From positions 7,499 through 71,498 of the forward strand of contig CAUUFA010000005.1 of the NCBI GenBank assembly GCA_963544395.1: 64,000 nucleotides of DNA, written 5' to 3'. Below, in pieces: positions 4,473 through 42,046 of the stretch; the first letter of the stretch is position 1; the number at the start of each line of letters is the position of its first letter. This DNA comes from an uncultured Bacilli bacterium (GTDB taxonomy: Bacteria; Bacillota_I; Bacilli_A; RFN20; CAG-288). The notes below the pieces were generated by a model, which was not told the origin of the DNA, made no database searches, and saw only the letters and a list, made by a program, of their open reading frames with translations. The translations under genes were made by a program, and so were the position numbers.

Positions 4473-4948
4473 GACGGATCAGACAGAAACGTCAGCGGTG
4501 TGTAAGCGAATAAGTCAAAGAAAAGACTCTGCAGTATTTGCCTGAAACACTGCAAGTTGGAGAGACGGAAATATGAAGAGAAACTTAGTCTGCTTGAAGC
4601 GGCCTACGATGCTTATGTGATTGAATTCAGGACTTGCTCCGTGCAATCCGATCAACGAAGACAAGAGCAACCAAGAAATCGATCCTCTTTTTGACAAGGC
4701 TGACAAAACCATGCTCGACGCTCTTTTCGTCGACGAGGATGAGACGTACAAGCTTTTGTCAAACGATAATGCATTCAGCTTCCTATATGATTTTTCCCTG
4801 AGAATCAGAAGCATTTCGGATCTAAAAAACTCGCTAAGGCGCTTGTTGATACCTTAGAAAAGCAAGTCGATTACAATCATGATGCTGTCGCTGTGTCAAG
4901 GGAGCGAACAGCTACGTCGAATAACTTTCTGAAAAGGCGTTTCCTGGT

Positions 4949-4979
4949 CAAAAAAAGGCCTAAGGTTTCCCTTAAGCCT
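4949..4979 (-). terminator. Rho-independent terminator for the minus-strand gene ending at 4972; the stop codon lies inside the hairpin
   Basis: Stem aggcctaagg (4956-4965), loop tttc, stem ccttaagcct (4970-4979), 10 bp with one G-U pair. A plus-strand A7 run at 4949-4955 gives a U-tract on the minus strand. Confidence 0.45.
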
Positions 4980-6315: not shown

Positions 6316-6318
6316 GAT

Positions 6319-22186: not shown

Positions 22187-25141
22187 ATGGCAAATAACGA
22201 AAACAAGAAAAAGGTCACCTTGAAAGAGTGGCTCACCATCTGCACCGGTCTGACGCTTGTAGGCCTCTGCATCATCGGAGCGACGGACGAGACCTTTATC
22301 GGACGGTTTCTGACGTATTCGTCGGCGTATGTCTTCGGTCTGTTCTATCCCGTATTCCTCATCGCAGTGGCCTGTTTTGCCGTACGTCTGATCTACAGCC
22401 GGAAAGGCTTTCCTATCCGACCTTATCTGATGATCTGGATCGGCATTCTTTTCTTCTCGCTCTCTCTGCTTGCTTTCGCTTCCTTCGGTCCGTATCGGGA
22501 AGATAAGATGACGCTTTCTTCCCTCATCAGCGATTATGGCAACCGCATGAAAGGGTTCGCCTCCGTTCCTTTTGTCGTCAACAACTTCGGAACACTGGCT
22601 CACTTGGGCGGAGGCTACATCGGCTTCTTCCTGCTCAGCCTCTTTGGTACGCTTTGGGGATATATCGGCAATGCGATTTTCTTCTCTCTCCTTCTGTTCT
22701 TCTCCCTGTTCTTAATCTGTTTCCGACCAATCGCCGATCAGGTCAACCGCGTCAAGAAGATGAACGCCGACAAGGTCAAATATGTCTCGCCTTATCAGGG
22801 CAAGGAATCTCAGCATCTCACCCGCGGCTTAGCGGAGGAGACACCAAGTCAGACAGCTCCTTTGGATCCGAAGCTTTCCGCGCCTTTGGAAAACGATTGG
22901 AAGAACGCTCCACAGGGCGGATTCACGCAGACACATCTCAGGCTCAGCAAAGAGGACGTGAAACCTCTTGAACCGGTCCATCCTGCTCTTTCTGAAAAGG
23001 GGGAAGAGATTCCGGAACTCCCTGAAGAAAGAAAACAGATTCCTCCTCAGGCTTCTTCTAGCAGCGCCTTCTCTCCGGTCAGCACCTCCTCTGAAGCGCC
23101 GGTTACCTCTGCTCCGAGCGAAAAGCCGATCGTTGCTGAACAGCCTTCTCGTCCTGCTACAACCCCGTTCTCTTCGTCTTATCAGCCTTCTCCTGCACCA
23201 CTTCCGGAAGAGAAAAAGACATTCTCATCCTTTTCTTCTGCTCCGACACCGACAAATACCGCTTCTTTGGAAGCTAGGCGGTTTTCAGAACAGGCGCTCT
23301 CCCCGGAGTCGACAACGTTTGATTTACCTGAACCTGAGCCGGCTCCATCCCGTCCTCAGCCGGCTTCGGACATGGCCTTCAATCCTTTGGAAGAGCAGGC
23401 GGCGAAGAGCGAAGCTTCTTCTCAGGCTTCGCCTTTCCGTGGCCCCTCTGAATTCACCTTCGTTGCACCGGCTCCTGCAACAGAGACAGCGGAGGAGCCT
23501 TCTTCCGATGTCGGTAAGACGATGGCGATGCCTGAACCTCTGAAGGAAGAGGAGACATCCGAAGCTACCGAGATCAGCGATGAGGACCGGGAAGAGATGA
23601 TCGCCGCCCGGTATTTCCAGGAAAGGCGGGATCGGGAAGCGAAAGCCATCCAGAACAAGCGAGCAGAGAAAGAGGCCAAGCGCCGGGAGCTTTACCGTTT
23701 TGTTTCCCCGACGCCGGTGGTCTATCGTTATCCGCTTCCGACCGATGTCATGTTAGAGGACAGAGATGACACTGAGAAGATGTCCGCCAACGTGGAAGCC
23801 GCCAAACAGAAAGGCACGATTCTCAATCAGGTGTTCAACGATTACGGCATCCGTGCCAGAGTCATCTCCTACACGATCGGCGCTTCGGTCACCCGCTTCA
23901 ATGTCGAGACCGAACCCGGAGAGAAATCCGACAAGCTCAATTCCATCGTCGCCGAGCTTCAGAAGGCGCTCAACGGCGATAAATCCGTCCGTGTCGAGAC
24001 CGTCGTCGAAGGAAAATCTACCTCCGGCATCGAAGTCAGGAACGCCGAGAGCATGGCTGTCTCCTTCAAGTCGACCTTCAAGACGATCGAAGCCGACACA
24101 AAAGAAAATCTTTTGCTTCCGATCGGCCAGGATATCTCCGGTCAGAACATCAATTTCCCGTTGAACAAGATGCCGCATATGCTTGTGGCAGGAACGACAG
24201 GATCCGGGAAATCGGTTCTGATCCATGCGATGATCATGACGATGATCATGCGGAATTACCCCAGCCAGCTCAAGCTGATGCTGATCGATCCGAAACAGGT
24301 CGAGTTTGTCCGTTATCAGGGAGAACCTCACCTCTTCTGTCCGGTCATCTCTAAGCCGACTGCAGCCGTCAAAGCGTTAGGAAAGCTCTGCACCGAGATG
24401 GATCGCCGCTTCAGCATTCTCTCTGAGTATCGCTGCTCCAACTACGAGGAATACTCCGATAAGCGGATCGGCAACGAGAACATCATGGAGGAGCTTCCGA
24501 TCGTCGTCTGCATCATCGATGAGTTCGCCGATCTGATGCAGACCGCAAGCCAAGCGGCTTCCTATGTCGCCCGCTTAGCCCAGAAGGCTCGCGCTTCCGG
24601 CATCTATCTGATCGTCGCCACCCAACGTCCTTCCAAAGACAATGTCCCGATGATCATCAAGGCCAACATCCCCTGCCGCATCGGTTTAAGCGTCTCCTCT
24701 CAGGTGGATAGCCGTGTCATCCTCGATGAGAACGGTGCCGAGACACTGTTAGGCAAAGGTGACCTTCTCTTCAAATGCCCAGGCCGAAAGTCCATGATCC
24801 GCTGTCAGTCTCCGTTTGTCTCTAACCGCGATATTGAGTCGGTCCTCGCTTACGACCGAGAGAAGGCCGGAACACCGAATTACAACCCGAACTTCCTGGA
24901 GTTAGACGATGAGGAAGAAGTCGAGGAAGAGGCGAAGGTAGGAAGCGGAGATGAAGTCTACGATATGATCAAGGACTTCGTGGTCCACACGGGACTCACC
25001 TCCAAGACTTCGCTCATGCACAACTTCAATGTCACCTCTGTGAAGGCGGATCAGTACCTTGCCAAATTAGTCAGTGAAAATGTCATCGAACCGAGCATCG
25101 GTGGGAAGTATGTGCTCTCTCCCCATGTCTCTATGATGTAG
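22187..25141 (+). CDS. ftsK: DNA translocase FtsK/SpoIIIE
   Basis: 984 aa. N-terminal TM helices, Pro/Ser-rich linker, Walker A GTTGSGKS, Walker B VVCIIDEFADL, C-terminal gamma winged-helix domain. Confidence 0.9.
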   Translation: MANNENKKKVTLKEWLTICTGLTLVGLCIIGATDETFIGRFLTYSSAYVFGLFYPVFLIAVACFAVRLIYSRKGFPIRPYLMIWIGILFFSLSLLAFASFGPYREDKMTLSSLISDYGNRMKGFASVPFVVNNFGTLAHLGGGYIGFFLLSLFGTLWGYIGNAIFFSLLLFFSLFLICFRPIADQVNRVKKMNADKVKYVSPYQGKESQHLTRGLAEETPSQTAPLDPKLSAPLENDWKNAPQGGFTQTHLRLSKEDVKPLEPVHPALSEKGEEIPELPEERKQIPPQASSSSAFSPVSTSSEAPVTSAPSEKPIVAEQPSRPATTPFSSSYQPSPAPLPEEKKTFSSFSSAPTPTNTASLEARRFSEQALSPESTTFDLPEPEPAPSRPQPASDMAFNPLEEQAAKSEASSQASPFRGPSEFTFVAPAPATETAEEPSSDVGKTMAMPEPLKEEETSEATEISDEDREEMIAARYFQERRDREAKAIQNKRAEKEAKRRELYRFVSPTPVVYRYPLPTDVMLEDRDDTEKMSANVEAAKQKGTILNQVFNDYGIRARVISYTIGASVTRFNVETEPGEKSDKLNSIVAELQKALNGDKSVRVETVVEGKSTSGIEVRNAESMAVSFKSTFKTIEADTKENLLLPIGQDISGQNINFPLNKMPHMLVAGTTGSGKSVLIHAMIMTMIMRNYPSQLKLMLIDPKQVEFVRYQGEPHLFCPVISKPTAAVKALGKLCTEMDRRFSILSEYRCSNYEEYSDKRIGNENIMEELPIVVCIIDEFADLMQTASQAASYVARLAQKARASGIYLIVATQRPSKDNVPMIIKANIPCRIGLSVSSQVDSRVILDENGAETLLGKGDLLFKCPGRKSMIRCQSPFVSNRDIESVLAYDREKAGTPNYNPNFLELDDEEEVEEEAKVGSGDEVYDMIKDFVVHTGLTSKTSLMHNFNVTSVKADQYLAKLVSENVIEPSIGGKYVLSPHVSMM

Positions 25142-27483: not shown

Positions 27484-29658
27484 ATGGCAGTGCGCAACCA
27501 ACTGTCGGCTGTCGCAAAAAGCGACAATGTCGTCGAAGTCAGTGTCAGCAAAGAGTTCTCGACGAAGACGCTCAAGGTCTTCCGTCTCTATGAGGGTGAT
27601 AATTTCATCCGCAAGCTGAAGGCGGTCTCCCAATCGGAGTCCCATTCCTCCAACATCTACACCTTGATAATAGATGATTTCAACTTCGTTCCTGGTAAGG
27701 AATTCTTCATCGTCACCGAAGATAATTTCTACATTCCGATCGACATCTCCTATCTGGCGAAGACAGATGAATTCGAAAAGAAGTATCGCTTTGATGGGAA
27801 GCTTGGTGCTTCCTACACGAAAGAAGCGACGACGTTCCGCGTCTTCTCTCCCTTCGCTTCGGTCTGCGTCCTCCGCCTGAAGCGGAAAGGATCTTCGAAA
27901 ATCGAAGCTTTTGAGATGGAACAGGATTTGAATGACGGCATGTTCTCTCTGACAGTCGAAGGTGACCTCGATGAGGCTAAATATGTCTACGGTGTTCGTG
28001 TCTTCGGTGTCAGCTATGAGGTCGCCGACCCTTATTCCTATGGGTTAGACAGCAATTCCCGGCATAGCTTTGTCATCGATCCTAACCGGGTTTATTCGCT
28101 CTCTTTGAATGAGGAAAGCCTTCCTTTGTTCAACGATCGGACGAAGGCGATCATCTATGAGTGCCACGTCCGCGACATGACCTCCAAGACTTCTCTTCCG
28201 AACCGCGGAACTTATCAGGCTCTCTCTGAGCCGGGTCTCAAGACGAAGCAAGGCTTACCTTTAGGCCTAGATTATATCGCCTCTTTAGGGGTCACGCACG
28301 TGCAGCTTCTTCCGGTTCTGGATTTTCAGTCGATCAACGATGATGACCCCCGCTCGATGTACAACTGGGGATATGATCCTGAGTTCTACTTCGCTCCGGA
28401 AGGCTCCTATAGCTCTGCTCCCTCTGACCCTTACGCCAGAGTTCTGGAACTGAGGAAGCTCGTTTCCGAGTTCCATAAGCGCGGGTTGAGAGTGGTCTTC
28501 GATGTGGTCTACAACCACGTCTTCTCTCAGGACTACAACCCTCTCTCCATTCTGGTTCCGAACTATTACTTCCGTTTCAACGACAACGGAACGCTCAGCA
28601 ACGGAACAGGGTGCGGCAATGATTTCGAGTCCCGCAAATTCATGGCGAGGAAGCTGATCAAGGAGTCGATGCTGCATGCGATTGACTTCTATGGCGCCGA
28701 TGGCTTCCGCTTCGACCTGATGGGAATTTCAGACATTGAGACCATGAAGCAGGCGTATGAAGAAGCTTCGCAGAAGAAACCGGATCTGATGTTCTATGGG
28801 GAAGGCTGGGATCTGATGACCAATCTTCCTGCGGATCAGAAAGCCAGCTATTACAACTCTGCCAAGCTGCCTTTCGCTTCCTTTTTCAACGACCGCTTCC
28901 GCGACATCACCAAAGGAAAATCGAACGAATCCGAGCTGAGCGTCGCCGGATACCTCTTAGGCGACACCAATTACCGAGATGGGTTCAAGCACGTCTTATT
29001 GGGCTCTTCTGTTGCTCTGTCGTTCGCACCTCTCTTCTCCCAGGCAGGCCAGTCTGTCAACTATGTGGAATGCCATGATAACAACACCCTCTACGATAAA
29101 ATCAAGGCGGTTCGTCCGGAGGATACGCCAGACGAGATCAAAAAGCGCATCCGTCTCATGGATATCGCAGTTTTGATGGCCTCCGGAATCCCCTTCTTCC
29201 ACGCCGGCCAGGAGATCGGCATGAGCAAGGACGGCAAACCGAACACCTACAATGCCGGTGACCGTCTCAACGGGTTCGATTACTCCCTCCTTGAGGATAA
29301 TACGGAACTTTATGACTTCTTCCGAGAAGCCATCAAGATGAAGAAGCTCTTCATGGAGAAAGCCGGAAAAGAATATGATGAGCTCAATCATCATATGTCG
29401 TTTGAGAATTTAGAGCGCGGCGCCTTGAAGATCAACTACGACTTTGAACGCTTCTCCCTCTACATCATCTTCAATCCTTCCAAGGAGTCCTTCATGTATC
29501 CGTTTGACGACTATGTCAATCTCATCTTCAACGAGTCCGGAGGCATCGATGAATCCGGTTTCTTCATCAAGATGGCCATCATCAATGCGCTGTCGGTCAA
29601 CGTCTTCCTCGTCACCAAATTTGTTAAGAGCACGCCCACAATCGAGGTGAAAGCATGA
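27484..29658 (+). CDS. pulA: Type I pullulanase / GH13 debranching enzyme (no signal peptide, probably cytoplasmic)
   Basis: 724 aa. GH13 regions YNHV, GFRFDLMG, EGWD, ECHDN. N-terminal CBM48-like region. Confidence 0.82.
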   Translation: MAVRNQLSAVAKSDNVVEVSVSKEFSTKTLKVFRLYEGDNFIRKLKAVSQSESHSSNIYTLIIDDFNFVPGKEFFIVTEDNFYIPIDISYLAKTDEFEKKYRFDGKLGASYTKEATTFRVFSPFASVCVLRLKRKGSSKIEAFEMEQDLNDGMFSLTVEGDLDEAKYVYGVRVFGVSYEVADPYSYGLDSNSRHSFVIDPNRVYSLSLNEESLPLFNDRTKAIIYECHVRDMTSKTSLPNRGTYQALSEPGLKTKQGLPLGLDYIASLGVTHVQLLPVLDFQSINDDDPRSMYNWGYDPEFYFAPEGSYSSAPSDPYARVLELRKLVSEFHKRGLRVVFDVVYNHVFSQDYNPLSILVPNYYFRFNDNGTLSNGTGCGNDFESRKFMARKLIKESMLHAIDFYGADGFRFDLMGISDIETMKQAYEEASQKKPDLMFYGEGWDLMTNLPADQKASYYNSAKLPFASFFNDRFRDITKGKSNESELSVAGYLLGDTNYRDGFKHVLLGSSVALSFAPLFSQAGQSVNYVECHDNNTLYDKIKAVRPEDTPDEIKKRIRLMDIAVLMASGIPFFHAGQEIGMSKDGKPNTYNAGDRLNGFDYSLLEDNTELYDFFREAIKMKKLFMEKAGKEYDELNHHMSFENLERGALKINYDFERFSLYIIFNPSKESFMYPFDDYVNLIFNESGGIDESGFFIKMAIINALSVNVFLVTKFVKSTPTIEVKA

Positions 29659-30470
29659 TCTGGAAATGGCTGAGAGTCATACCGCAGCTCTTGCCGATGC
29701 TGCTGTTGCAGTATCCTTTCTATCGGCACAGAAGCCGACATCCTGAGCGGCATGAACCCAAGGACGATTTCGCTTATTTCAAGCCGCTGACGGAGAAGTT
29801 TGCCCGCAGACTTCGCTGCTCCTACATCATCCAGGGAAAAGAGAACCTCCCGGAAGGACAGGGCTTTTTTGTCGCTAATCACGTCTCTCTGATCGACCCG
29901 ATCATCGTCTATGCGGTAAGCGACAGGCCCTTGGCTTTCGTGGCCAAGAAGCAGATTCGGAAGATTCCTCTCTTCGGCAAAGCCTGTTTGGCGATGAAAT
30001 GTGAGTTTTTGGACCGTGAGGATCTGCGAAGCGAGATCAAAACCTTCCACGCTGTCGATGAGAAGCTTGCTCAGTATCCAGAGCTCAGCTATTTTGTCTT
30101 CCCGGAAGGGACGAGATCGGTCGGACCGGAATTCCCGTTGGCGAAGTTCCATGCTGGCACCTTCAAGATCGCGGTGCGACGTGCGCTTCCGATCGTGCCG
30201 ATGGCGATGTGGCTTTCGGAGCGCTGCCTTGACCACCGCTACCACTATCATCATTATCCCATTCAGATCACCTATCTGAAGCCGATTCTTCCGGAAACTT
30301 ATCAGACGATGACCAATGCGGAGATCGCCGCTTTGGCCCAGTCGGAGATTGATGAGGAACTCAAGCGGATGAAGGAAAAAGACCGTGAGCTTGTGAAATC
30401 CCTCAATCATTACTCCGATAAGAAGACCGATAAAGTTCTCTTCCACCACCATTACAAGAGCAAAGGTTAA
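29655..30470 (+). CDS. plsC: 1-acyl-sn-glycerol-3-phosphate acyltransferase
   Basis: 271 aa. Acyltransferase motifs NHVSLIDP (HX4D) and FPEGTRS. Overlaps pulA by 4 nt. Confidence 0.8.
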   Translation: MIWKWLRVIPQLLPMLLLQYPFYRHRSRHPERHEPKDDFAYFKPLTEKFARRLRCSYIIQGKENLPEGQGFFVANHVSLIDPIIVYAVSDRPLAFVAKKQIRKIPLFGKACLAMKCEFLDREDLRSEIKTFHAVDEKLAQYPELSYFVFPEGTRSVGPEFPLAKFHAGTFKIAVRRALPIVPMAMWLSERCLDHRYHYHHYPIQITYLKPILPETYQTMTNAEIAALAQSEIDEELKRMKEKDRELVKSLNHYSDKKTDKVLFHHHYKSKG

Positions 30471-30677
30471 CGTCAAAAGAGCGCTTCTTCTCTTCCTTTT
30501 CCGAGAAGAAAAGGCGGAGCGTTCTTTTTTTCTATATAAGATAAATATTTATCTATTTATATTCTGAGGAACGGAAAATCCGCCCATTTTTAGATATGTA
30601 GCAACCAACAGAGTAAAGTTGAAGTTGTTTCCAGTTTCTTTCGAACGTAATTCAAGGTAGATTTATTTCATCTTTTG

Positions 30678-30706
30678 TTGTATTGATCCCGTTTCATGTT
30701 TATAAT
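30678..30706 (+). promoter_or_regulatory. Sigma-A-type promoter for the jetABC-like operon
   Basis: TTGTAT (30678-30683), 17 nt spacer, TATAAT (30701-30706). RBS AAGGAAAAGGG 9-10 nt before the TTG start at 30745. Confidence 0.4.
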
Positions 30707-30744
30707 TCTATTAGTGTTTCTTCGAAGGAAAAGGGTAACTCAAA

Positions 30745-32229
30745 TTGAACCGTTTATTTGATAAAATCCCGGAGGAGCTCTTCTCACCGCTCTCCCGGAA
30801 ATACAAATCCGTCTACGCCTTTGCCTTAGTCTCTCTGTACCACATGCTGAAAATGTACAAGACTGACATCAGAAAAGCCGATTATGTGGCACTTCTGAGA
30901 GGTCAGGGTCAGGAGATGATGACTCTTTTCAGCATCGAGACGGACCGGCTTGACGATAAGGATGACGAGGAGATGATCGAGGCGGAGAAGACGGAGAGCA
31001 CCGAGGATGTCGGTGCACTTTTGGGCGCCAAGGTCAATTACATCGTCAGGAAACTCGCCAAGTGCGGATGGTATATCATCTCCCGGGATCCGAAAAGCAA
31101 CATCGAGTACATTTATATCCCCGCCTATTCCATTCAGCTGCTCAAGCTTATCAACGAGCTTACGTCGGATACCGGAAGCTATCTGCCTCTCGTCCATCAG
31201 ACCTATGCCGAGCTCAAGATGGAGGACGAGAAGGAAGACGATTATATGTTCCGATCTCTGATGAACGCCAAGCAGAACGCAGACACCTTGGAGATGTCCG
31301 TCACGTTGCTCCGTCAGCAGATCTGTGTCTTCGGAAACAAGCTGACGCATGTCCTTGATCCGAACCAGGCTTTAAAACAGCACTTTGACGGATATCGCGT
31401 CGACATCTCGGAAAAGTATTATCACCCGATGAAGACGTTCGATTCTCTGGGCCTTTATGCCCAGCCGACGATCCGCATCCTCAACCGCTGGATCAAGAGC
31501 GAACGCATCATCTCCCTCTTGGTCAAAGAGGCGAAGACGGAACCTTTATATCAGGGCAAAGAAGAGAGCGAGCTCGTCGGCTTCATCATCCGGCGCATCC
31601 AGGATATCATAGACATCTTCTCGCGTCTTTCCTCTGCCTTCAACGAGATCGATAAAGCGAATGCGGATTACACCGAAGCCGTGCAGAAGAAGGTCAATTA
31701 CCTCTCTTCTTCCGATCGCACCGTCAAAGGCAAGGTCGATAAGATCATCCTCTCTCTGGCGACGGAGATCAAAAACAATCCGGCGCTTCGGTATGAGGAA
31801 CTTCCTCTGCTTGGCCGTGCCAACGAGACCCTCGGCTTATACTGCCAAGGCTATCTCGACTCTTTCTCTCTGACCATGCCTTTCCGCCGGAAGCAGATCT
31901 TTGCTTCCGATCCTCTGCCACTCGATGACGATCTGTTTCCGGATGAAGCGGCGGATATGATGAACAGCATCATCGATTCTGAGCTCAACCGCTTCTCCGA
32001 TAGCGCCATCTCGGAATATATCGACCAGAATATGGGAGAGAAGGACCGGATGCTATCTAACGAGATGCAGGTCCTGAATACGGATCAGCTGGTTCTTTTG
32101 ATTCTCGGCATCCTCAAAGCGGTGTTAGGTCTGATTCCTTATCGGGCTCAGAAGCTTGAAGACCGCATCGAATATGCCGGTTACTACATGCCGCTTTATG
32201 AATTCACCAGAAAGAAAGGAGCAAGGTAA
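30745..32229 (+). CDS. jetA: Wadjet JetA / MksF-like kleisin subunit (DUF3375-like), first gene of the 3-gene operon
   Basis: 494 aa, TTG start. Called from size, position and tight coupling to the next two genes (jetA stop overlaps the jetB start: TAATG). No motif certainty. Confidence 0.5.
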   Translation: MNRLFDKIPEELFSPLSRKYKSVYAFALVSLYHMLKMYKTDIRKADYVALLRGQGQEMMTLFSIETDRLDDKDDEEMIEAEKTESTEDVGALLGAKVNYIVRKLAKCGWYIISRDPKSNIEYIYIPAYSIQLLKLINELTSDTGSYLPLVHQTYAELKMEDEKEDDYMFRSLMNAKQNADTLEMSVTLLRQQICVFGNKLTHVLDPNQALKQHFDGYRVDISEKYYHPMKTFDSLGLYAQPTIRILNRWIKSERIISLLVKEAKTEPLYQGKEESELVGFIIRRIQDIIDIFSRLSSAFNEIDKANADYTEAVQKKVNYLSSSDRTVKGKVDKIILSLATEIKNNPALRYEELPLLGRANETLGLYCQGYLDSFSLTMPFRRKQIFASDPLPLDDDLFPDEAADMMNSIIDSELNRFSDSAISEYIDQNMGEKDRMLSNEMQVLNTDQLVLLILGILKAVLGLIPYRAQKLEDRIEYAGYYMPLYEFTRKKGAR

Positions 32230-32945
32230 TGTTCCAGGAAGAAATTGAAAAAATGAGTCGCTCGGACCGTGCGATCTTCTCCGAGACGGTCAACAATCTT
32301 CTCTATCATTGCTTCATCACGAGGAAAATCTACGACCGGAAATCCCATATGTTCAAGGCGAATCCGGATTATCTTTTCCTGGAGAGGTATTTCTCGGTCT
32401 TCGAGGATTATCTTTCCTATATGGAGATGCAGCTCTCCCAGAATGAGGAAGACGGCGTCATCTTCGTCACCAGCGGAGCTGAGCGGAATCACTTCCGCGT
32501 CGATCCGACCACGACCTTGATCGTCTTCGCTCTCCGCTCCTACTACGAGGGGCAGGTGGAGAAAGTTCCTGAGGAATCCGAAGTCATGATGACTTCCGGT
32601 CAGCTCAACGCTTTGGTTCAGGATCTAGGCTTATCCAACATCTCCAAGCGCCTTTCTGCTACCACGATCTCCTCGGTTCTGCACACGCTCGATGGCTTCA
32701 ACATCGTCACGAGAGCCAATGGCACCTACTCGGATCCGACTTATTCCTTCTTCATCCTGCCGACGATCCGCTTCGTCATCTCTTCGGAGAAGCTCAATGC
32801 CCTCTACGCTTTCTTGACCAAGCCGGAAGAGGATGAAGAGTCCTCTTTCCTCAGCCCTTCTTTCCGGGCTGAGAATGATGACGAGAGTGAAAAAGAAGAA
32901 CCTGCACAAGGCGACGATATCCCGTTTGAGGGAGGGAATGACTGA
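32229..32945 (+). CDS. jetB: Wadjet JetB / MksE-like subunit (DUF4194-like)
   Basis: 238 aa with an acidic C-terminus. Overlapping stop/start with jetA and jetC. Size matches MksE/JetB. Confidence 0.5.
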   Translation: MFQEEIEKMSRSDRAIFSETVNNLLYHCFITRKIYDRKSHMFKANPDYLFLERYFSVFEDYLSYMEMQLSQNEEDGVIFVTSGAERNHFRVDPTTTLIVFALRSYYEGQVEKVPEESEVMMTSGQLNALVQDLGLSNISKRLSATTISSVLHTLDGFNIVTRANGTYSDPTYSFFILPTIRFVISSEKLNALYAFLTKPEEDEESSFLSPSFRAENDDESEKEEPAQGDDIPFEGGND

Positions 32946-35900
32946 TGAAATCACTACAGAGACTCAGACTCATCAACTGGCACTACTTTTCCAACACCAC
33001 GACGGAAATCAAGAATATCTCCTTCCTAACGGGTCCTAACGGCACCGGAAAATCGACCATCATCGATGCGCTTCAGGTCATCATCTTAGGTACGACAAGA
33101 CCGGAGAACTTCAACAAGGCCGCCAATGAAAAAGGCCGCACGGGACGAAACCTTCTCTCTTACCTCCGCGGTCAGACCGGCATCGGACCCGATGGCAAGG
33201 CCCTGGTTTTAAGAAACGGAACCTTCACCTCTTATGTCGCCATCGAACTTTTCGATGATGTCAGCTCCTCGACGATCACCCTAGGCGCTGTCTTCGATGT
33301 CGATGATGCCGATAAGATCGACAAACATTACTTCTATCTCGATTCGCCTTTCCCGGAGAACGGATTCACAGATTCCGATACTCAGAAGGCCAAGAGCAAG
33401 GTCCTGCCGATGCGGTACCGAGATCTCTCCGCCTGGGCCAGAAGCACTTATGGCAGCTCTCGCTACCGCTTCTTCGATACCGATACTGATTATCAGTCCT
33501 TCATCAAGGAAGTCTATGGAAACCTTCCGGACAAGTATTTTTCTTTGTTCAAGAAGGCGGTTTCCTTCTCGCCGATCTCCAACATCTCCTCTTTCATCAC
33601 GGAGTATATCTGCGACGCCGATCTGAATGTCGACATCACCCCGATGCAGAAGAACATCGAGCAGTATAAGATCCTCGAGACGGAAGCCAAGAACCTTCGG
33701 AACAAAGTCGAGGCTCTCACCGCGATCCACAGCGCCTATGAAGAGATGTCCGGCTTCGACCGCCAGATCAACATGCTCAACTATGTCAACGCCCGCGTCT
33801 CCTACGAGGAAGCCAAGAAGAAGCTGGATGTCTTCCAGGAGCGATTAGCCAAGGACAACGAGAGACTTGCCTACATCGGCGATTCAATCGCCAAGGCGGA
33901 TTCTCAGCTGGAGGACCTCCGCTCGGATTACAACTCCTACAATGCCAAGCGGCTGCAGTCGGATAAATATTCTCTGACCGAGAAGCTGTCGATGAAGAAG
34001 GACGATATCACCAGACAGATCTCCTCGATTCAGATGCAGGTCAGCAACGTGATCACCTCTCTCAACGGCTATGCGGATTCCTATCTCAGAGTAACGAACA
34101 GCTTCTACAATTATTACAAGGACTTTGATGCCGATAAGCTCGGCGAGGATGTCAAAGACGACTTCGATCATCTCCTTGAGCTCGTCTCCGATGTCGGCAG
34201 AGAAGCTAAGGCTATCTTAGACAGCATCGACCAGAACAACATCGATCTCTCCGAAGTCCATGCCTTCCGCAACGACATGGAAACTTTGCGCAACGATGCC
34301 CTCTCTCTGAAGACTCTGCTCAACAACGGATTCTACCGGGTCTCGGAACAGTTGCAGAGCTTGCAGAACGATCTGATGAACGTCTCCAACGGCAAGAAGC
34401 CTTTCGATAAGCTCGGACCGGTCTATCTCACCATCAAGAAGGATCTCGAGACCGCACTTCAGGCCCGCCATTCCGACGCTTATGTCCACATCTTCTGCGA
34501 CCTTGTCGATGTCAACGATCCTGAGTGGCAGATGGCTTTGGAAGCCGTCATCTTCTCACAGAAGTTCAACTTCTTTGTCAATCCCCGCTATTACATCGAA
34601 GCCAACCGCATCCTCAAGGAACTCACGGATTCCTATCACTATTACCGTGTCTCCATCGTCGATAGCGAAAAACTTTTAAACAGCGACATCCGATCGGATG
34701 AAGGCTCTTTGGCCGATCTCATCGACACTAAGGATGAGGGGGCGAGAGCCTACAGCGACTACCTTCTTGGCCGCATCCGGAAGTGCCGCACCTTCGAGGA
34801 AGCCAGAGATTCCGGATCCGGTCTTCTCTCCGATTGCACGGGCTATCGTGGATTCGCTACCTGGTATCTCAACAAAGCCAACGCCAGAACGTTTTACCTC
34901 GGAACTTCCGTTTCCAATAGCACCAAAGCTACCTCTTCTGCCGATTATCAGGAGATGAACAAGCGCTATTCCCTCTATTCGGAAGCCATCAACAAGATCT
35001 CCGACCTGCTCACCTTGCCGGTCATGTCTGATAATGAACTTGGAACCTATCAGTCGGATATCGACAGGACCAACGCCATCCCCGATCTGCAGAAGCAGAT
35101 CTCCGATCTCGACAGCCAGATGAAGGCGGTCGCCACCGGCGATATGACGGCGATCGATCAGAAGATAGCAGAGATCAACGCCAGCATCAAGACGATCTCG
35201 GAAGATCGGAACAACCTGCTCACCGAGCGCGGTCAGCTTTTAGCGGACACGCAGCGCCTCAACGGTGAGGACATCCCGACGGCCACCAAGACCGCCGAGG
35301 ATCTCCGTCGTCAGCTTGTCAGTTATGATGAGACCCTCGTCAACGAGCAGTATGAGCCATTCTTCGAGAAGCTGCTCGATGAACAGCATCTGACTTTGGC
35401 TCAGATCCGCAACGAAGGCTATCGTGAATTCATTCAGGCTCAGGCCAAGCAGTCTAAGGCAAAGAACATGCTCCTCAAGCTCCGCGGCGATTACTGCGCC
35501 CAGAACTCGGTCAGCTACGATGCCCAGAACTTGCAGTCCAACGCGGAATTTGACCAGGAGCTCGACAAGATCTCTAAAGTCATGCTGCCGGATTATGAGC
35601 AGAAGATCTCCAAGGCTCACGAGGATTCTATCCGCGAGTTCAAGGATGATTTCATCTATAAACTCAGAACCGCTATCGAGACGGTTCAGGCTCAGATTGT
35701 CGATCTCAACCATGCGCTTGAGGACTCCCACTTCGGCCGTGACTCCTATCAGTTCAAGGTCGCGCCCAACAAGGACTACCTCGAATACTACAACATGATC
35801 ATGGATCCGTTTCTTCTCAGGAGCGGTGACGCCGAGTCTCTCTTCATGGAGAAGTACAGGACTACGATGGATGATCTCTTCAATCTCATCTCTTCCTCCA

Positions 35901-36454
35901 CCTCCGCCAGCGGTGAGCAGAAGGAGCAGATCTTGCGCAACGTCGCCCTCTTCACCACCTATACGACCTACATCGTCTTCGACCTTCTCGTCACCAGAGG
36001 CGAGGGTGAGAACAAGAACACCATCTCGTTGGGACGTTCGTTCACCTCGCAGTCCGGCGGTGAGACGCAGACGCCGTTCTACATCGCCATCCTCGCTTCC
36101 TTCGCTCAGCTCTGCCGTGTCAACAATGCCAAGGATAACAACACCCTCCGTCTGGTCATCTTTGATGAAGCTTTCTCCAAGATGGACAGCGCAAGAATCA
36201 TGAAGGCGACCGATCTGCTTCGGAACTTCGGCCTGCAGGCGATTCTCTCTACTCCGAGCGAAAAGCTGCGTGACCTTGTCTCCTACGTCGATCTGATCTT
36301 GGTCACGATGCACGACGATAAGCGGAAACGCTCTTATCTGGATGTTTATCTCGATAAGAACAAGGATCGTCAGGGGACTCCTTCTGAGCCGAGCGTTGAG
36401 CCGGAAGAAGAGGCGGAAGCTCCGGAGATAGCATCACCGGAGATAGAAGCCTGA
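32945..36454 (+). CDS. jetC: SMC/MukB-like ATPase JetC / MksB (N-terminal Walker A head, long coiled coil, C-terminal signature and Walker B head)
   Basis: 1169 aa. N-terminus LRLINWHYF...FLTGPNGTGKSTIIDAL is MukB-like (compare LTLINWNGFF...GGNGAGKST). C-terminal QSGGE signature (36050-36064) and LVIFDEAF Walker B (36152-36175). Long helical middle. Confidence 0.8.
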   Translation: MKSLQRLRLINWHYFSNTTTEIKNISFLTGPNGTGKSTIIDALQVIILGTTRPENFNKAANEKGRTGRNLLSYLRGQTGIGPDGKALVLRNGTFTSYVAIELFDDVSSSTITLGAVFDVDDADKIDKHYFYLDSPFPENGFTDSDTQKAKSKVLPMRYRDLSAWARSTYGSSRYRFFDTDTDYQSFIKEVYGNLPDKYFSLFKKAVSFSPISNISSFITEYICDADLNVDITPMQKNIEQYKILETEAKNLRNKVEALTAIHSAYEEMSGFDRQINMLNYVNARVSYEEAKKKLDVFQERLAKDNERLAYIGDSIAKADSQLEDLRSDYNSYNAKRLQSDKYSLTEKLSMKKDDITRQISSIQMQVSNVITSLNGYADSYLRVTNSFYNYYKDFDADKLGEDVKDDFDHLLELVSDVGREAKAILDSIDQNNIDLSEVHAFRNDMETLRNDALSLKTLLNNGFYRVSEQLQSLQNDLMNVSNGKKPFDKLGPVYLTIKKDLETALQARHSDAYVHIFCDLVDVNDPEWQMALEAVIFSQKFNFFVNPRYYIEANRILKELTDSYHYYRVSIVDSEKLLNSDIRSDEGSLADLIDTKDEGARAYSDYLLGRIRKCRTFEEARDSGSGLLSDCTGYRGFATWYLNKANARTFYLGTSVSNSTKATSSADYQEMNKRYSLYSEAINKISDLLTLPVMSDNELGTYQSDIDRTNAIPDLQKQISDLDSQMKAVATGDMTAIDQKIAEINASIKTISEDRNNLLTERGQLLADTQRLNGEDIPTATKTAEDLRRQLVSYDETLVNEQYEPFFEKLLDEQHLTLAQIRNEGYREFIQAQAKQSKAKNMLLKLRGDYCAQNSVSYDAQNLQSNAEFDQELDKISKVMLPDYEQKISKAHEDSIREFKDDFIYKLRTAIETVQAQIVDLNHALEDSHFGRDSYQFKVAPNKDYLEYYNMIMDPFLLRSGDAESLFMEKYRTTMDDLFNLISSSTSASGEQKEQILRNVALFTTYTTYIVFDLLVTRGEGENKNTISLGRSFTSQSGGETQTPFYIAILASFAQLCRVNNAKDNNTLRLVIFDEAFSKMDSARIMKATDLLRNFGLQAILSTPSEKLRDLVSYVDLILVTMHDDKRKRSYLDVYLDKNKDRQGTPSEPSVEPEEEAEAPEIASPEIEA

Positions 36455-36477
36455 GCTAAGACCGTTTTCATCGTTCA

Positions 36478-36515
36478 AAAAATCCCTCGCACCTAGTCAT
36501 GCGGGGGATTTTACG
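36478..36515 (+). terminator. Rho-independent terminator after jetC
   Basis: aaatccctcgc (36480-36490) / gcgggggattt (36501-36511), 11 bp stem with one G-U pair and a 10 nt loop, followed by a T-rich tail. Confidence 0.55.
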
Positions 36516-36540
36516 TTTCCGGGATGTGCCACTCCGATCA

Positions 36541-37115
36541 GAACGTTTCGGGATAGAGTCCTTCTCTCAGGGTGAAATCCTCGGGTTTTACGGCGCTGTA
36601 ATAGGTAGAAAAAACTGCATCGAAGGAAGCGAGTACCTTCTCATCCGAGGTCTGGTAATACCACTGAGATTCATACTCGCCCTTTTTGTTTTTCTCGAAG
36701 ACGATGGATTGTAACAGTTTCGTGTTTATGCTCAGGTACTCGACCTCTCCTTTATAGCTTCTTAAAAAAGTACGAAGGAGGTGTTTTTCAGCGATAGCTT
36801 CACGACCTGGTAATACCCGCCGTGGATCTTGACCCCGTCATGACCGACGACGCTGAAGCCTTTTTCGTTGGAACGGTATTTCTGCTTGGCAAAAGGAGCA
36901 AACGACTTGATGGCAGCTTCAAGTGATTCGCTTTTGATCACTGAGGCGCTGTAGGCATAGCGATAGCAAGGGGCGAATTCCGGATCAGGAATGGCGTTGC
37001 CGACGGAGACGGATTCTACCATCTTGCTGAAATTGAACGACTTGTGGGTGACATAGGTGCAGGAGGTGAGGCAGAGGAATAGCGGTAAAACGACAAGTGA
37101 TCTCTTCTTGTTCAT
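36541..37115 (-). CDS. Lipoprotein gene. Annotated ORF 36762-37115 (117 aa). A +1 frame stays open for a further 73 codons beyond an A6/T6 tract, so this may be a frameshifted roughly 190 aa gene
   Basis: Signal peptide with lipobox LTSC. The stop at 36762-36764 directly abuts a homopolymer (plus-strand A6 at 36764-36769). The downstream frame has no stop until 36541. Confidence 0.45.
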
Positions 37116-37124
37116 GGTTTACTC

Positions 37125-38155
37125 CTAATTATAAACGACATAAGTAAATCTAATCAGATGCCAGTCTGGATTATTTGAATCTTCTGAAGAAAACGAATTA
37201 TTAACCGGATCCATACGTGTCATCACAATCCCTGGTTCTGTGGAATAGCTGCTTCGGCATTCAATGTAGGATACACCTCTTTCATTCGTATGATAGCCAA
37301 ATCCCAGCATATAATGACCATCGAACATATTCGGATCTTCATGGACAATTCCTACCTGACAATTGTTTAAGAGCCATGTGATGGAAGAAAAGTCATTTGT
37401 AAATGAAACTTTTATGTTTGGAACCCCGGCTTTTAATATGTAAGCCCCGATTTTCTGAATTCCGGTATAAGTTGTTGTCGGCTCTCCATTAAAAGGGTTT
37501 GTGATGACAATATCATTTGCTATTTCGTTAATATGGTAGTTGATTAATGCACGATCGTCATCGTGTTTTAATGGCAATTCCCCCGGAAACAATCTTGATA
37601 ATATCGAACTATACCTATCGTAGTATGAAAGGTATTCTAAGACAGAAGTGGGACCGCAATAGGCGTCATGGATTTTACCGTAATCGCTTTGATAATAATC
37701 TTGATAATATTCTGGAACAGACGAAATTGTCCCCCAAGAGCTACCATACATTGTCCAATAATTCAGTGTAATGTTGGATATTGGAAAAATTCCGGTGTCG
37801 GTGAATCCATCTGGTGGCGCAGTATGGCGGACGCTTTTTTGTTTTCAGCGTAATGACGTGTTCTTACATTGACATCTTCATGATAGAAGGTTACTTTTAC
37901 TACACCTTTTTCATCATATTCTGCGTCACCTTCGATTTTCCCGTTCTTCAACAAATAAACACAATTACAATTCTATGGCGTTGTTTTTCTGAATCTATCG
38001 CCAATCTGATAACCCGGGTATTCAAAAAAGATGCTTTGAAGATCCGAACACAAATAGCGTTCCGAGTTTGAAAATTGACTTGGAATAGATTTGGCAAATA
38101 GAGATGAGATAACTCCTAGTAAGGAAAAAAATTCATTACCTTTTGCTCCTTCCAT
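37125..38155 (-). pseudogene. Disrupted gene for a secreted C39-like (papain-fold) cysteine peptidase. Three ORF pieces are separated by an in-frame TAG (37973-37975) and by a frame change near a T6/A6 tract (37835-37840)
   Basis: ORFs 37973-38155 and 37763-37954 share one frame across a single TAG. ORF 37125-37751 (208 aa, contains a CGPTS-type Cys context like Peptidase_C39_2) is open upstream to 37844 in another frame. Low-GC region. Confidence 0.4.
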
Positions 38156-38385
38156 AATACTTTAACTCTCTGCTACATATTATTGTATCGCATTTAGCAA
38201 AAACAATTCAAAATCATATTTTTTAAATTGCTGTTTGCTAGTTCTGGCGAGTTAAAAAAAGAGAGCAATTAATCCCCAAATCCGATAATCGAAAAAGCCA
38301 AAAATTAGTGAGAAAGCTAACTTTCGTTTAGACATTTGGATTATAATCTATATATCTGAACAAAGGTCCAGGAGGAATGAATGCT

Positions 38386-39498
38386 ATGAAACAGGAATTA
38401 GTCGCCCTGATCTTGGCTGGTGGCAGAGGCACGCGTCTGAAAGCCCTGACTGCCAAGATCGCAAAGCCTGCCGTCTTTTTCGGTGGCAAGTACCGCATCA
38501 TCGATTTTCCGCTCTCGAACTGTGCGAACTCTAGTATCCATGCTGTCGGTGTCGCGACGCAATATGAGTCGACGATCCTTAACAACTACATCGGTACTGG
38601 TCGTAACTGGGGTCTGAACGGAACCGGAGATCTCACCTCCATTCTTCCTCCCAGAGAGACGCCGAAAGGTGCCAGCTGGTATGCCGGAACCGCCGATGCG
38701 GTCTATCAGAACATCGATTGGCTGGACTCCACGCACTGTGAATATGTCGTCATTCTTTCTGGCGATCACATCTACAAGATGGATTATTCCGATATGCTGG
38801 CTTTCCATAAGAAGAACGCAGCCGATGTCTCTATCGCCTGCATCAAGGTTCCGATGTCGGAAGCGTCCCGCTTCGGCATCGTCGTGGCTGATTCCGAAAA
38901 CCGCATCAACGAGTTCCAGGAGAAGCCGAAACAGCCGAAATCCGATTACGCCTCTATGGGTATTTATATCTTTACGTACGCTCTGCTTCGCGAAGCTTTG
39001 ATCACGGATGCAGCTGACAAGAAGTCCGATCATGACTTCGGCAAGAACATTCTTCCGAAGATGCTCAATGACGGACAGAGGCTTTTTGCTTATCCGTTCC
39101 ATGGCTATTGGAAGGATGTCGGCACCGTTCAGTCGCTCTGGCAGGCCAATATGGACCTTCTGGATCCTGACTGCGAGCTGAAGCTTTTCTCGCCGGAATT
39201 TAAGATTTATTCCGCGGATACAGCCTCGAAGCCACAGCGCATCTCTAGCACGGCGAAGATCGACAACGCTGTCGTCAACCAAGGCGCTATTATCAAAGGT
39301 CATGTCGTCCACTCTGTCATCTGCAACGAAGCGGTGATCGAAGAGGGGGCCGAGGTCATCAATGCCGTCCTCTTGCCTAGCGCCCACATCGAGAAAGGCG
39401 TCCGGGTAGAGAATGCTATCATCGGCGCCAAGGAGATCGTCAGCAAGGATGTCGTCGGAGATATCGATGATGTCGCTCTCTTTGCGACGGGAGAATAA
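38386..39498 (+). CDS. glgC: Glucose-1-phosphate adenylyltransferase
   Basis: ALILAGGRGTRL, KPAVFFGGKYRIIDFPLSNCANS. ORF begins at 38377, but the ATG at 38386 has better spacing to GGAGG (38371-38375). -10 TATAAT at 38342-38347. Confidence 0.88.
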   Translation: MKQELVALILAGGRGTRLKALTAKIAKPAVFFGGKYRIIDFPLSNCANSSIHAVGVATQYESTILNNYIGTGRNWGLNGTGDLTSILPPRETPKGASWYAGTADAVYQNIDWLDSTHCEYVVILSGDHIYKMDYSDMLAFHKKNAADVSIACIKVPMSEASRFGIVVADSENRINEFQEKPKQPKSDYASMGIYIFTYALLREALITDAADKKSDHDFGKNILPKMLNDGQRLFAYPFHGYWKDVGTVQSLWQANMDLLDPDCELKLFSPEFKIYSADTASKPQRISSTAKIDNAVVNQGAIIKGHVVHSVICNEAVIEEGAEVINAVLLPSAHIEKGVRVENAIIGAKEIVSKDVVGDIDDVALFATGE

Positions 39499-39512
39499 GG
39501 AGGAAAAGGAAA

Positions 39513-40628
39513 ATGGCTTACAAAGTTTTAGGTCTTGTCGACTGCTTCAACGAACCCGAACTCGGTCTGATGACGAGACATCGCTCTGTCGCATCCACCA
39601 CCTTCCTCTCCCGTTATGCCTTCATCGACTTTCCGCTCTCTAACTTCTTGAATTCCAACATTCCGAGCATCGGTGTTCTCTGCCGCAACCACATTCGTTC
39701 TCTGCAGAAACATGTCGGCAACGGAAGATATTGGATCGGCAACACGAAAATCGGGGATTTCTCCATCCTTTACGATGAACCAAATGTCGCTAACCCCGGC
39801 TATAACACCGATGTTGCTTGCCTTTTGGAGAACCACTGGTATCTGAAGCAGATTCATCCGGATTATGTCATCATCGCCGAACCGCACTTCGTCTTTGAAG
39901 CGGACTATGACCTTCTTCTGAAGGAACACATCGCTTCCGGAGCGAGAATCAGCATGCTCTACACGAAGGCGGACCATCTCAAGACCAGCTTCATCAACGA
40001 TAGGAAGATCTATCTTTCTCCGACCAACAAGATCCTTCGTATGGAAAAGAACAAACTCAACGAGGACGAGGGCAACATCGCCGTTGGTTCTCTGATCATG
40101 GATTATCCGATGCTGGAGAGCCTTTTAGACTATGCTTCTTCCACCTCTTCCTTCTTCGGCTTGATGGACACTCTCAATTACGTCTCTTCCTCCGTTTTGA
40201 TCCGTCCGGTCCTTCTGAACTCCTATGTCCGGTCCATCGATTCGCTTCCGCACTACCTGAAATATTCGCTCGAACTCCTTGATGAGGATGTCTTCCACAG
40301 TCTGTTCAAAGAAGACTGGACCATCCGCACCAGGACCTATGATACCCCGCCGACCTGCTATCGTGATGGTGCGATCGTCGAGAACGCCTACATCGGAAAC
40401 GGCTCCATCATCGAAGGAACCGTCATCAACTCTGTCCTCGGCAGAGGTGTCAGAGTCGAGAAAGGTGCCATCATCCGCAATGCCTGCATCGGCTCCGGTT
40501 CTCTCATCGCGGCGAACACCCACATCGAGAATGCGGTCGTTGATCGGGAAGCTCAGGTCGTCCATATCTCGGAAGTTAAAGGCTCGATGGATGATCCAAT
40601 CTACATCGCCAGAGGAGATATCATCTGA
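39513..40628 (+). CDS. glgD: Glycogen biosynthesis protein GlgD (regulatory ADP-glucose pyrophosphorylase subunit)
   Basis: 371 aa. Degenerate nucleotidyltransferase N-terminus after glgC. Left-handed beta-helix C-terminus. RBS AAGGAGGA. Confidence 0.78.
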   Translation: MAYKVLGLVDCFNEPELGLMTRHRSVASTTFLSRYAFIDFPLSNFLNSNIPSIGVLCRNHIRSLQKHVGNGRYWIGNTKIGDFSILYDEPNVANPGYNTDVACLLENHWYLKQIHPDYVIIAEPHFVFEADYDLLLKEHIASGARISMLYTKADHLKTSFINDRKIYLSPTNKILRMEKNKLNEDEGNIAVGSLIMDYPMLESLLDYASSTSSFFGLMDTLNYVSSSVLIRPVLLNSYVRSIDSLPHYLKYSLELLDEDVFHSLFKEDWTIRTRTYDTPPTCYRDGAIVENAYIGNGSIIEGTVINSVLGRGVRVEKGAIIRNACIGSGSLIAANTHIENAVVDREAQVVHISEVKGSMDDPIYIARGDII

Positions 40629-42046
40629 TGAATATCTTATTAGTAAGCGCAGAAGCTCTTCCTTATTCAAAGTCCGGCGGATTAGCAGATTTCATCTTCT
40701 CTTATGCCAAAGCCTTGGTGAAGAACGGAGATAAAGCCTCCGTCATCACCCCGCTCTATAAATCCATCCGAGACAAGCATCCTGAAGTCATGAACGGATT
40801 CTATGATCAGTTCGATTTCAAGATGAACTGGCGGACTCAGGGCTGTGGCGTCTTCCACACTGTGGTCTCCGGTGTCGACTTCTACTTCACGGCGATGGAC
40901 CGTTTCGACCGAGACAACATGTATGGATATGGCGATGATAACGAACGTTTTGCCTGCTTCATGATGGCGGTCAACACCTTCATCACCCGTCACAACGTCT
41001 ACGATGTCGTCCACTGCAACGATTGGCAGACAGCTGTTCTTCCTCTGCTGCTCACCTATAATCCGAAAAGCATCAAGACTGTTTTGACGATCCACAACCC
41101 GGCGTTTCAGGGCTGGGCGACCCGAGATAATCTGTCCGAGTATTTCAACCTAGACCGGGGTTATTTCGACACCGGCTATGTCAAGATGGGCGATTCCTTC
41201 AACTATCTGAAGACTGGCATCATGTCGGCCGACAAGATCAACACGGTCTCCAAGACCCACGCCAGAGAGCTGCTCTCCGATCATCAGGGATTCGGCGGGA
41301 TCGGCGCAATCTTGGATTGGTGCCGGCATTATGATTTCAGCGGCATCGTCAATGGACTGGATGTCGATATCTGGGATCCTAGGACCGATAAGGAGCTCGT
41401 TGCCAACTACGATGAAAAGACCTATAAGAGCGAGAAGGCGAAAAATAAGAGAGCTTTGCTGAAAAAGCTCGGCATCGCCGAGGATGTCAACGTTCCTCTC
41501 TTCTCTGCTATCACTCGTCTGAGCTCGCAGAAGGGCGTCGATAGGATCATGCAGCTCTTCCCGCATCTCGAAGAGAAGAACGCCAGGCTTGTCGTCATCG
41601 GGACCGGAGAGATGGAGGATGTCTTCCTTCAGGACTCTTTGCGGTATCCGCGCGTCTATTTCGTCAAACGCTACGATGAGAATCTCGCTCATCTTCTCTA
41701 CGCCGCTTCCGACTTCTTCTTGATGCCCTCCTATTTTGAACCCTGCGGAACTTCCCAGCTGATCTCCATGCGCTATGGAACTTTGCCTCTCGTCTCCGAT
41801 GCCGGAGGGCTTAACGACACGGTCAAGGACATCAACTCCGGTTACGGAGCGACAGGATATGTTTTCAACAACCAGGATTACTTCGGCTGCGTGAACAAGT
41901 TCTATTACGCCTGCGATATGTACTGGAGAAAACAGCTTGATCCCTTCATCCTCAACGGCATGCAGGGCGACTACTCTTGGTCGAAGAGTGCTAAGGAGTA
42001 TCTCAACCTCTATCGCTCCATCGACTGGAAAGGCAGAAAGCAGTAA
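40628..42046 (+). CDS. glgA: Glycogen synthase (ADP-glucose type, GT5)
   Basis: 472 aa. N-terminus MNILLVSAEALPYSKSGGLADF. Confidence 0.9.
   Translation: MNILLVSAEALPYSKSGGLADFIFSYAKALVKNGDKASVITPLYKSIRDKHPEVMNGFYDQFDFKMNWRTQGCGVFHTVVSGVDFYFTAMDRFDRDNMYGYGDDNERFACFMMAVNTFITRHNVYDVVHCNDWQTAVLPLLLTYNPKSIKTVLTIHNPAFQGWATRDNLSEYFNLDRGYFDTGYVKMGDSFNYLKTGIMSADKINTVSKTHARELLSDHQGFGGIGAILDWCRHYDFSGIVNGLDVDIWDPRTDKELVANYDEKTYKSEKAKNKRALLKKLGIAEDVNVPLFSAITRLSSQKGVDRIMQLFPHLEEKNARLVVIGTGEMEDVFLQDSLRYPRVYFVKRYDENLAHLLYAASDFFLMPSYFEPCGTSQLISMRYGTLPLVSDAGGLNDTVKDINSGYGATGYVFNNQDYFGCVNKFYYACDMYWRKQLDPFILNGMQGDYSWSKSAKEYLNLYRSIDWKGRKQ

Follow-up and report, generated by a model that had tools for sequence, protein, structure and literature searches.

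What is left to do for a Wadjet operon without its nuclease? In type I Wadjet, JetABC is responsible for DNA loading, loop extrusion and shape sensing, and the DNA is cut by JetD, which must dock on the larynx of JetC (10.1101/2023.11.03.565488). The question is raised by a stretch of 64 kb of DNA from an uncultured Bacilli bacterium (contig CAUUFA010000005.1), which was analysed at its full length and is called here the window. At positions 30745–36454 it contains three translationally coupled open reading frames (ORFs), jetA, jetB and jetC, with no jetD beside them. An earlier note on this DNA had considered (a) a chromosomal MksBEF-type complex, (b) a decayed Wadjet that had lost its effector and (c) a nuclease-less variant, using another effector or acting by compaction and silencing of plasmids, and had preferred (b) or (c) on the basis of an 'islet context'. 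The evidence reported below favours (a): by analogy with MksBEF, it is rather probable that JetABC is a loop extruder for the folding or segregation of the chromosome, and not a plasmid cutter, because the operon is retained throughout a lineage in the chromosomal core.

The jetABC operon

The operon is made up of the following genes, given with the predicted nature of their products, and of candidate signals at its two ends:

30711..30716, plus strand: candidate −10 box TATAAT of the jetABC promoter, read by eye, perfect match
30745..32229, plus strand: jetA, 494 amino acids (aa), TTG start; kleisin subunit, type I Wadjet JetA / MksF
32229..32945, plus strand: jetB, 238 aa; KITE subunit, DUF4194 / MukE-like; its start shares 1 nt with the jetA stop
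32945..36454, plus strand: jetC, 1169 aa; ATPase of the SMC family, comprising two head halves (N- and C-terminal), a coiled coil and a hinge; its start shares 1 nt with the jetB stop
about 36479..36512, no strand assigned: hairpin 3' of jetC, 13-bp stem between an A run and a U run

The gene sizes and the overlaps of 1 nt described in the earlier note are borne out by the ORFs and by the two junctions, TAATG between jetA and jetB (32227–32231) and TGATG between jetB and jetC (32943–32947), with one shared base each; purine-rich sequences resembling Shine-Dalgarno sites (AAAGGAG / GGGAGGG) are located directly 5' of each junction. The operon had also been credited with its own promoter and terminator, of which the terminator found support and the promoter was reduced to a candidate −10 box. 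The TATAAT sequence is 29 nt 5' of the jetA start, inside the 274-bp gap between plsC and jetA, and a consensus promoter scan called no full sigma-70 −35/−10 pair 5' of jetA. At the other end, the RNA fold of the hairpin has an energy of −22.4 kcal/mol (z = −2.8), and this hairpin was also called, on the minus strand, by the consensus scan; it is a probable bidirectional intrinsic terminator, predicted to close the jetABC operon. A minus-strand ORF of 357 aa within jetC (35240–36313) was rejected as a gene: it is a shadow ORF, and its 'conservation' by tblastn in 49 loci follows the conserved frame of jetC.

The JetABC/MksFEB-type identity, assigned earlier from the letters alone, was confirmed by profile searches in Pfam and PADLOC and by PDB matches, which agree with each other; the three genes encode the JetA, JetB and JetC subunits of a type I Wadjet. 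JetA matched Pfam PF18982 (JetA / DUF5716; 8.6e-68, 229 bits with a cut-off of 26.2, residues 75–490) and PADLOC JetA1 PDLC00449 (1.2e-89, residues 3–493 of 494). JetB matched Pfam PF13835 DUF4194 (1.2e-14, 54.8 bits with a cut-off of 32.7) and PADLOC JetB1 PDLC00502 (1.9e-62), and gave a weak PDB match to JetB 9qe0. JetC matched PADLOC JetC1 PDLC00519 (6.7e-289, residues 1–1141) and the Pfam domains AAA_29, SbcC_Walker_B and SMC_hinge, and its translation contains all the SMC ATPase motifs quoted in the earlier note, namely LRLINWHYF, GPNGTGKST, QSGGE and LVIFDEAF. Its only solved relatives in the PDB are the JetC of E. coli (8as8, 9qxt), which was the best match, and that of Pseudomonas aeruginosa (8dk1); the alignment to them extends over the head and hinge regions only, where the identity is about 20%, and does not allow mapping of F919, the residue of the E. 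coli JetC larynx that contacts JetD (10.1101/2023.11.03.565488).

Signatures of the other bacterial SMC complexes were looked for in the same proteins. As for MukBEF, the MukB N-terminal family PF04310 reached 19.9 bits on JetC, below its 23-bit cut-off, and there was no MukF or MukE match in Pfam; as for Smc-ScpAB, SMC_N reached 30.3 bits on the N-terminal part only of JetC, below the 40-bit cut-off, genes 1 and 2 had no Pfam match to ScpA or ScpB, and NCBIfam returned no SMC equivalog. The operon was then compared with type I Wadjet as known from E. coli GF4-3 (PDB 8as8/8bfn/8q72) and Bacillus cereus Q1: the profiles are matched end to end, and the genes have the same order with overlapping stop and start codons. 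JetA, JetB and JetC are thus all of the expected kind, whereas a JetD (Toprim/TopoVI-like nuclease, PF09983 and PF11795) in the operon is lacking; without this Toprim nuclease no DNA cleavage is expected. Unlike type I Wadjet, moreover, the operon is found in the chromosomal core and not in a defence island. The closest description is that of the 'FEB' operons of Bürmann et al., defined as consecutive co-directional genes for MksF (400–1200 aa), MksE (150–800 aa) and MksB (>890 aa, with Walker motifs) (PMC7617805, methods). The three genes analysed here (494, 238 and 1169 aa, co-directional and overlapping, with Walker motifs in the third) fall in the same size ranges, follow the same order F-E-B and have no flanking MksG/JetD.

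Search for JetD and for a substitute partner

A JetD from the canonical JetABCD operon of a Cohnella plasmid was used as query and gave 118 homologues, and 84 of these served to build a hidden Markov model (HMM). The model was run on all stop-to-stop fragments of at least 40 aa, in six frames, from the window and from 83 loci, which include those of the related operons (the clade) described in the next section. Nothing was found at E ≤ 10 in the window or in the related loci, and the positive control alone scored (2e-169). The sensitivity of the model can be judged from the nearest JetDs outside the clade, which scored 1e-114 and 1e-104. Likewise, tblastn with the two nearest out-of-clade JetDs gave no match at E ≤ 1 in the window or in the clade loci. 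There is no jetD, nor a recognisable remnant of it, in the 64-kb window or, for the 80 relatives, in the roughly 10 kb that flank the operon on each side, in agreement with the earlier observation that none is adjacent. The accompanying statement that all described Wadjet systems carry jetD is outdated, as nuclease-less operons have been published (PMC7617805).

Other possible partners were considered and rejected. Two proteins of 358 and 415 aa encoded upstream show a weak inactive-M16-peptidase signal and are two genes apart from jetA. The genes present in the plsC–jetA and jetC–glgC gaps of relatives encode an acyl-CoA-ligase-like protein of about 530 aa, membrane proteins, a bile-salt hydrolase, an ABC-transporter solute-binding protein, a GH3 glycosidase and a helicase-domain protein: none of them is a nuclease, and none is universal. 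The other 44 ORFs of the window were scanned by PADLOC as a deliberately meaningless alignment; the scan did not name the matched protein, and the top 25 of the 55 families obtained were mostly kinase false positives.

A conserved chromosomal locus

Scanning one genome per species yielded 566 relatives of JetC, and the best 80 of the 566 were analysed, with about 23 kb per locus. They come from uncultured gut Bacilli, with 35–72% JetC identity, and include Candidatus Enterosoma, "Coprobacillus sp. CAG:826", "Clostridium sp. CAG:568" and various metagenome-assembled genomes. A search for homologous proteins returned at least 120 JetC homologues, all clade members among the matches listed. The genes that flank the operon in the window, by which the related loci were compared, are the following:

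27484–29658: glgB-like branching enzyme, upstream end of the glycogen cluster
29655..30470, plus strand: plsC-type acyltransferase (Pfam PF01553, 2.6e-25), syntenic upstream neighbour, outside the system
38377..42046, plus strand: glgC-glgD-glgA (Pfam on the identical contig), syntenic downstream neighbours, chromosomal-core markers

In the window, jetABC and plsC are embedded in a glycogen gene cluster (27484–42046), between the glgB-like gene and glgC-glgD-glgA, and jetC is followed by the terminator, by two small ORFs on the minus strand and by the three glg genes, so that the flanks are those already reported, with plsC upstream and small genes of opposite orientation downstream. All the other annotatable genes of the 64 kb have housekeeping functions: polC, aminoacyl-tRNA synthetases, tsaB/D/E, galK, galT and ftsK, together with rlmN, a PP2C phosphatase with a Ser/Thr kinase, rsgA, rpe, adhE and hrcA-grpE-dnaK-dnaJ. 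No defence or mobile-element gene was found among the annotated neighbours in the window, and the GC content is about 0.50 across the operon, equal to that of the flanks.

The same arrangement is found in the relatives. Among the 80 loci, jetC is present in all, jetB in 76 and jetA in 75 (a full-length JetA homologue was counted in 73 of 75 related loci); glgC, glgD and glgA are 3' of jetC in 56–60 of the 80, and plsC and the glgB-like gene are 5' of jetA in about 35. The order plsC-jetABC-glgCDA is thus syntenic across species whose JetC proteins share 35–72% identity. The spacing between jetC and glgC is often only about 20–300 bp, and in many relatives, with 23–300 bp, a fourth gene would not fit. 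In several relatives it is 23–100 bp, and there jetABC may share a transcript with glgCDA. Moreover, the identity of JetC to the window protein follows that of the proteins encoded by the flanking genes of the same locus (rho 0.92 for glgA, 0.84 for glgC, 0.81 for the glgB-like gene, 0.74 for plsC and 0.73 for glgD), and the synonymous divergence (dS) of jetABC is similar to that of flanking glgC, glgA and glgB-like genes. Because of the synteny in most loci, this correlation and the matching dS, jetABC is taken as an old operon, shown to be vertically inherited across at least 80 species-level genomes. The 'islet' described previously is not recognisable in a locus of unchanged GC content, with housekeeping neighbours and syntenic, vertical inheritance, and the preference for a decayed Wadjet or for an islet-borne nuclease-less variant, which was built on it, is unsupported.

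The genes are also under strong constraint. JetC is full length in 75 of 76 clade ORFs, and the motifs GxNxxGKST, SGGE, FDEAF and SKMD show little or no variation among the 76 proteins. The ratio of nonsynonymous to synonymous divergence (dN/dS) was 0.00–0.07 for jetA, jetB and jetC in nine of ten independent close pairs and, in the tenth, 0.07 for jetA and 0.14 for jetC; in the flanking glg genes it was 0.013–0.093, about equal to that of jetABC. By this measure, jetABC is constrained as strongly as the neighbouring metabolic genes.

Origin of the nuclease-less branch

The sister group was searched for in 1.84 billion representative proteins, taken as 50%-identity representatives. The JetC identity decreased gradually from 68% to 35% and then reached a plateau at 31–33%. 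The representative at 35% has jetABC, 23 bp and then glgCDA, with no jetD; in the representatives at 33% and 31%, outside the clade, the stop of jetC is overlapped by a JetD gene (PF09983). Since the nearest out-of-clade relatives are canonical JetABCD operons, with jetD right after jetC, the clade is placed by these comparisons as a nuclease-less branch derived from JetABCD.

Operons of this class appear in the catalogue of Bürmann et al. (Cell 2025; PMC7617805, Data S1 and Fig. S1A), who remark that 'Several other Wadjet group members' are without MksG/JetD. The words of their operon table count 93 FEB and 1 BEF, as compared to 609 FEBG, 155 GFEB and 11 BEFG, which means that about 11% of the Wadjet-group operon clusters are without nuclease. 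Two contigs of our clade, SVBD01000001.1 (L054) and JAFLUZ010000005.1 (L060), are listed there as FEB, and in the published tree they group with 100% support with Clostridium sp. CAG:288 and Treponema rectale, all of them FEB; the neighbours in the tree, Acidaminobacter, Fusibacter, Kyrpidia, Thermacetogenium and Desulfitobacterium, are FEBG (PMC7617805). The operon of T. rectale, a spirochaete (QOS39287.1, CP031517.1), is placed inside the Bacilli clade, with the same 100% support (PMC7617805, Data S1). In the text and supplementary files consulted, PMC7617805 offers catalogue rows, a tree and a general remark on nuclease loss, and the lineage itself is absent from them. The class of nuclease-less Wadjet-group operons is already published, and jetABC of the window is another instance of it; the lineage-wide synteny, the co-divergence with the flanking genes and the dN/dS at the level of housekeeping genes are added here.

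Possible function of JetABC without JetD

The locus encodes a complete JetA-JetB-JetC set, composed of a kleisin, a KITE protein and an SMC protein with an intact ATPase; the complex would be active and would descend from a type I Wadjet JetABCD whose JetD Toprim nuclease was lost long ago. The three-gene operon has been kept at one chromosomal site, from plsC to glgCDA, in a lineage of gut Bacilli known through metagenomes (Candidatus Enterosoma and relatives). The complex would load on DNA and extrude loops with ATP, as JetABC does without JetD, but it would not cut, and the role for which it is selected would be the organisation or segregation of the chromosome, as for MksBEF of P. aeruginosa and MukBEF, and not plasmid cleavage. 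MksBEF of P. aeruginosa is likewise a Wadjet-group complex without nuclease; it differs in belonging to another bacterial phylum, in deriving from an independent loss event and in coexisting with Smc-ScpAB. MukBEF, also a nuclease-less SMC complex of the Wadjet group with the order F-E-B, is the main chromosome-folding machine where it occurs (PMC7617805); its sequences are far apart from those of the operon studied here, and it replaced Smc-ScpAB. Whether JetABC might hold the same position, as the main or only chromosome-folding SMC complex of the lineage in place of Smc-ScpAB, was considered as well, and we regard it as quite improbable. An approximate query from B. subtilis Smc gave no match in the clade loci, a result that carries no weight, as all of them cover the same region.

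Some considerations weigh against a role in chromosome maintenance. The role is inferred from conservation and analogy. The member found in T. rectale implies at least one horizontal transfer of an operon that was already nuclease-less, and horizontal transfer is more typical of accessory genes. The deep nodes around the clade in the published tree are weakly supported (15–21; PMC7617805). Furthermore, the searches covered the window and about 10 kb on the flanks of the operon, and an unlinked jetD, or another nuclease, may be encoded elsewhere. If so, the system would be a Wadjet that still cleaves, with JetD or an unrelated effector joining JetABC in trans. This we consider quite improbable: the DNA examined amounts to 64 kb of the source genome and about 23 kb per relative, which is in its favour, but in the nearest of the relatives that carry JetD its gene overlaps the stop codon of jetC, no JetD signal was detected in about 85 loci, and the nuclease gene, which flanks the operon in 775 of the 869 rows of the table in PMC7617805, is always flanking when present. 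Nor is any extra gene conserved clade-wide, as the recurrent neighbours (plsC, the glg genes, the DUF3137-like gene and that for a 150-aa membrane protein) are neither nucleases nor universal.

A defence that does not need the nuclease is a more serious rival, even if unlikely in our opinion. In that case JetABC would sense small circular plasmids or mobile DNA by complete loop extrusion and would counteract them by compaction, by silencing or by interfering with replication or partition, in a way resembling the silencing of viral episomes by Smc5/6. The proteins resemble most closely those of type I Wadjet, a machine that senses plasmids, their strong conservation fits any useful function, and the T. 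rectale member suggests that a nuclease-less operon is useful after transfer. On the other hand, the characterised systems need JetD and the JetC–JetD contact for restriction (10.1101/2023.11.03.565488), there are no neighbouring defence or mobile-element genes, and the operon is syntenic, vertical and constrained like metabolic genes, whereas defence genes as a rule evolve fast, have a patchy distribution and lie in islands. The same constraint bears on the possibility of a decayed Wadjet remnant, drifting to loss after that of its effector, with which the absence of JetD would agree: because of purifying selection at the housekeeping level (dN/dS is about 0.02–0.07, far from 1) and of the invariant ATPase motifs, decay is excluded. 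The genes are full length and intact in nearly all of the 80 species, their translational coupling is preserved, and the remnant hypothesis is effectively refuted.

Other features of the window and of the related loci

The jetC terminator is separated from glgC by a patch, about 1.9 kb long (36515–38330), of low GC content (0.42–0.45). On the minus strand it carries a gene for a 117-aa protein with a lipoprotein-like signal peptide (36762–37115) and one for a 208-aa protein (37125–37751) with a weak match to Peptidase_C39_2 (E=0.0018, below the cut-off); upstream of the latter, the ORFs 37763–37954 and 37973–38155 may be its frameshifted N-terminal pieces. Since the ORFs of the patch have no counterpart in any of the 80 related loci, it is a strain-specific insertion, and the sole strain-specific part. 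Further upstream, 22187–25141 encodes an FtsK/SpoIIIE protein of 984 aa with alpha and motor domains, no Pfam match for gamma and a C-terminus that looks by eye like a divergent winged helix; next come the genes for the 358-aa and 415-aa proteins, in which the signal of an inactive M16 peptidase is the only one. In the PADLOC scan of the housekeeping proteins of the window at least 19 PD-T4-6 models matched very strongly (lowest E value 6e-103), the likeliest target being the Ser/Thr kinase at 45971–46960, and one member each of the mad6, SspH and MkoA models matched window proteins; for the annotation of defence, all of these are probably false positives.

In the related loci two families of membrane proteins recur, both missing from the window. 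The gene for a multi-pass membrane protein of about 150 aa, with a basic-then-acidic tail and no Pfam match, is found on the same strand as jetC and 50–100 bp 3' of it in one deep subclade (L054:13423-13857 and loci L055, L056, L058, L061, L063, L065 and L073). A family of 300–375 aa is encoded directly 5' of glgC in L060:13421-14335, where it has a DUF3137 match, in L035:13495-14520 and in 20 more loci, in the deeper half of the clade; it follows glgC, not jetC. Outside the clade, a 252-kb replicon of Agathobacter rectalis from a plasmid collection (L082, NZ_CP143948.1) has at 1759–7351 a JetABC without JetD, with 22% JetC identity, directly followed by a carbonic anhydrase and an MFS transporter.

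Implications

It has been proposed, not shown, that MksBEF and MukBEF arose from a plasmid-cutting Wadjet by loss of the nuclease (PMC10586767). The lineage described here would be a clean natural case for such a change from Wadjet to chromosome organiser, with a type I JetABC fixed at one site, vertically inherited and constrained. The sisters that bear JetD are only a few percent further away (33% compared with 35% identity), which allows the passage from defence to housekeeping to be tested by direct comparison and by subunit swaps. For annotation the case calls for caution, as the profiles of defence finders call JetA, JetB and JetC in an operon that probably does not restrict plasmids. 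Finally, if JetABC did replace Smc-ScpAB, chromosome maintenance would have passed a second time, and independently, to a machine that once defended against plasmids, as with MukBEF but in Firmicutes, with the JetABCD sister group still extant for comparison.

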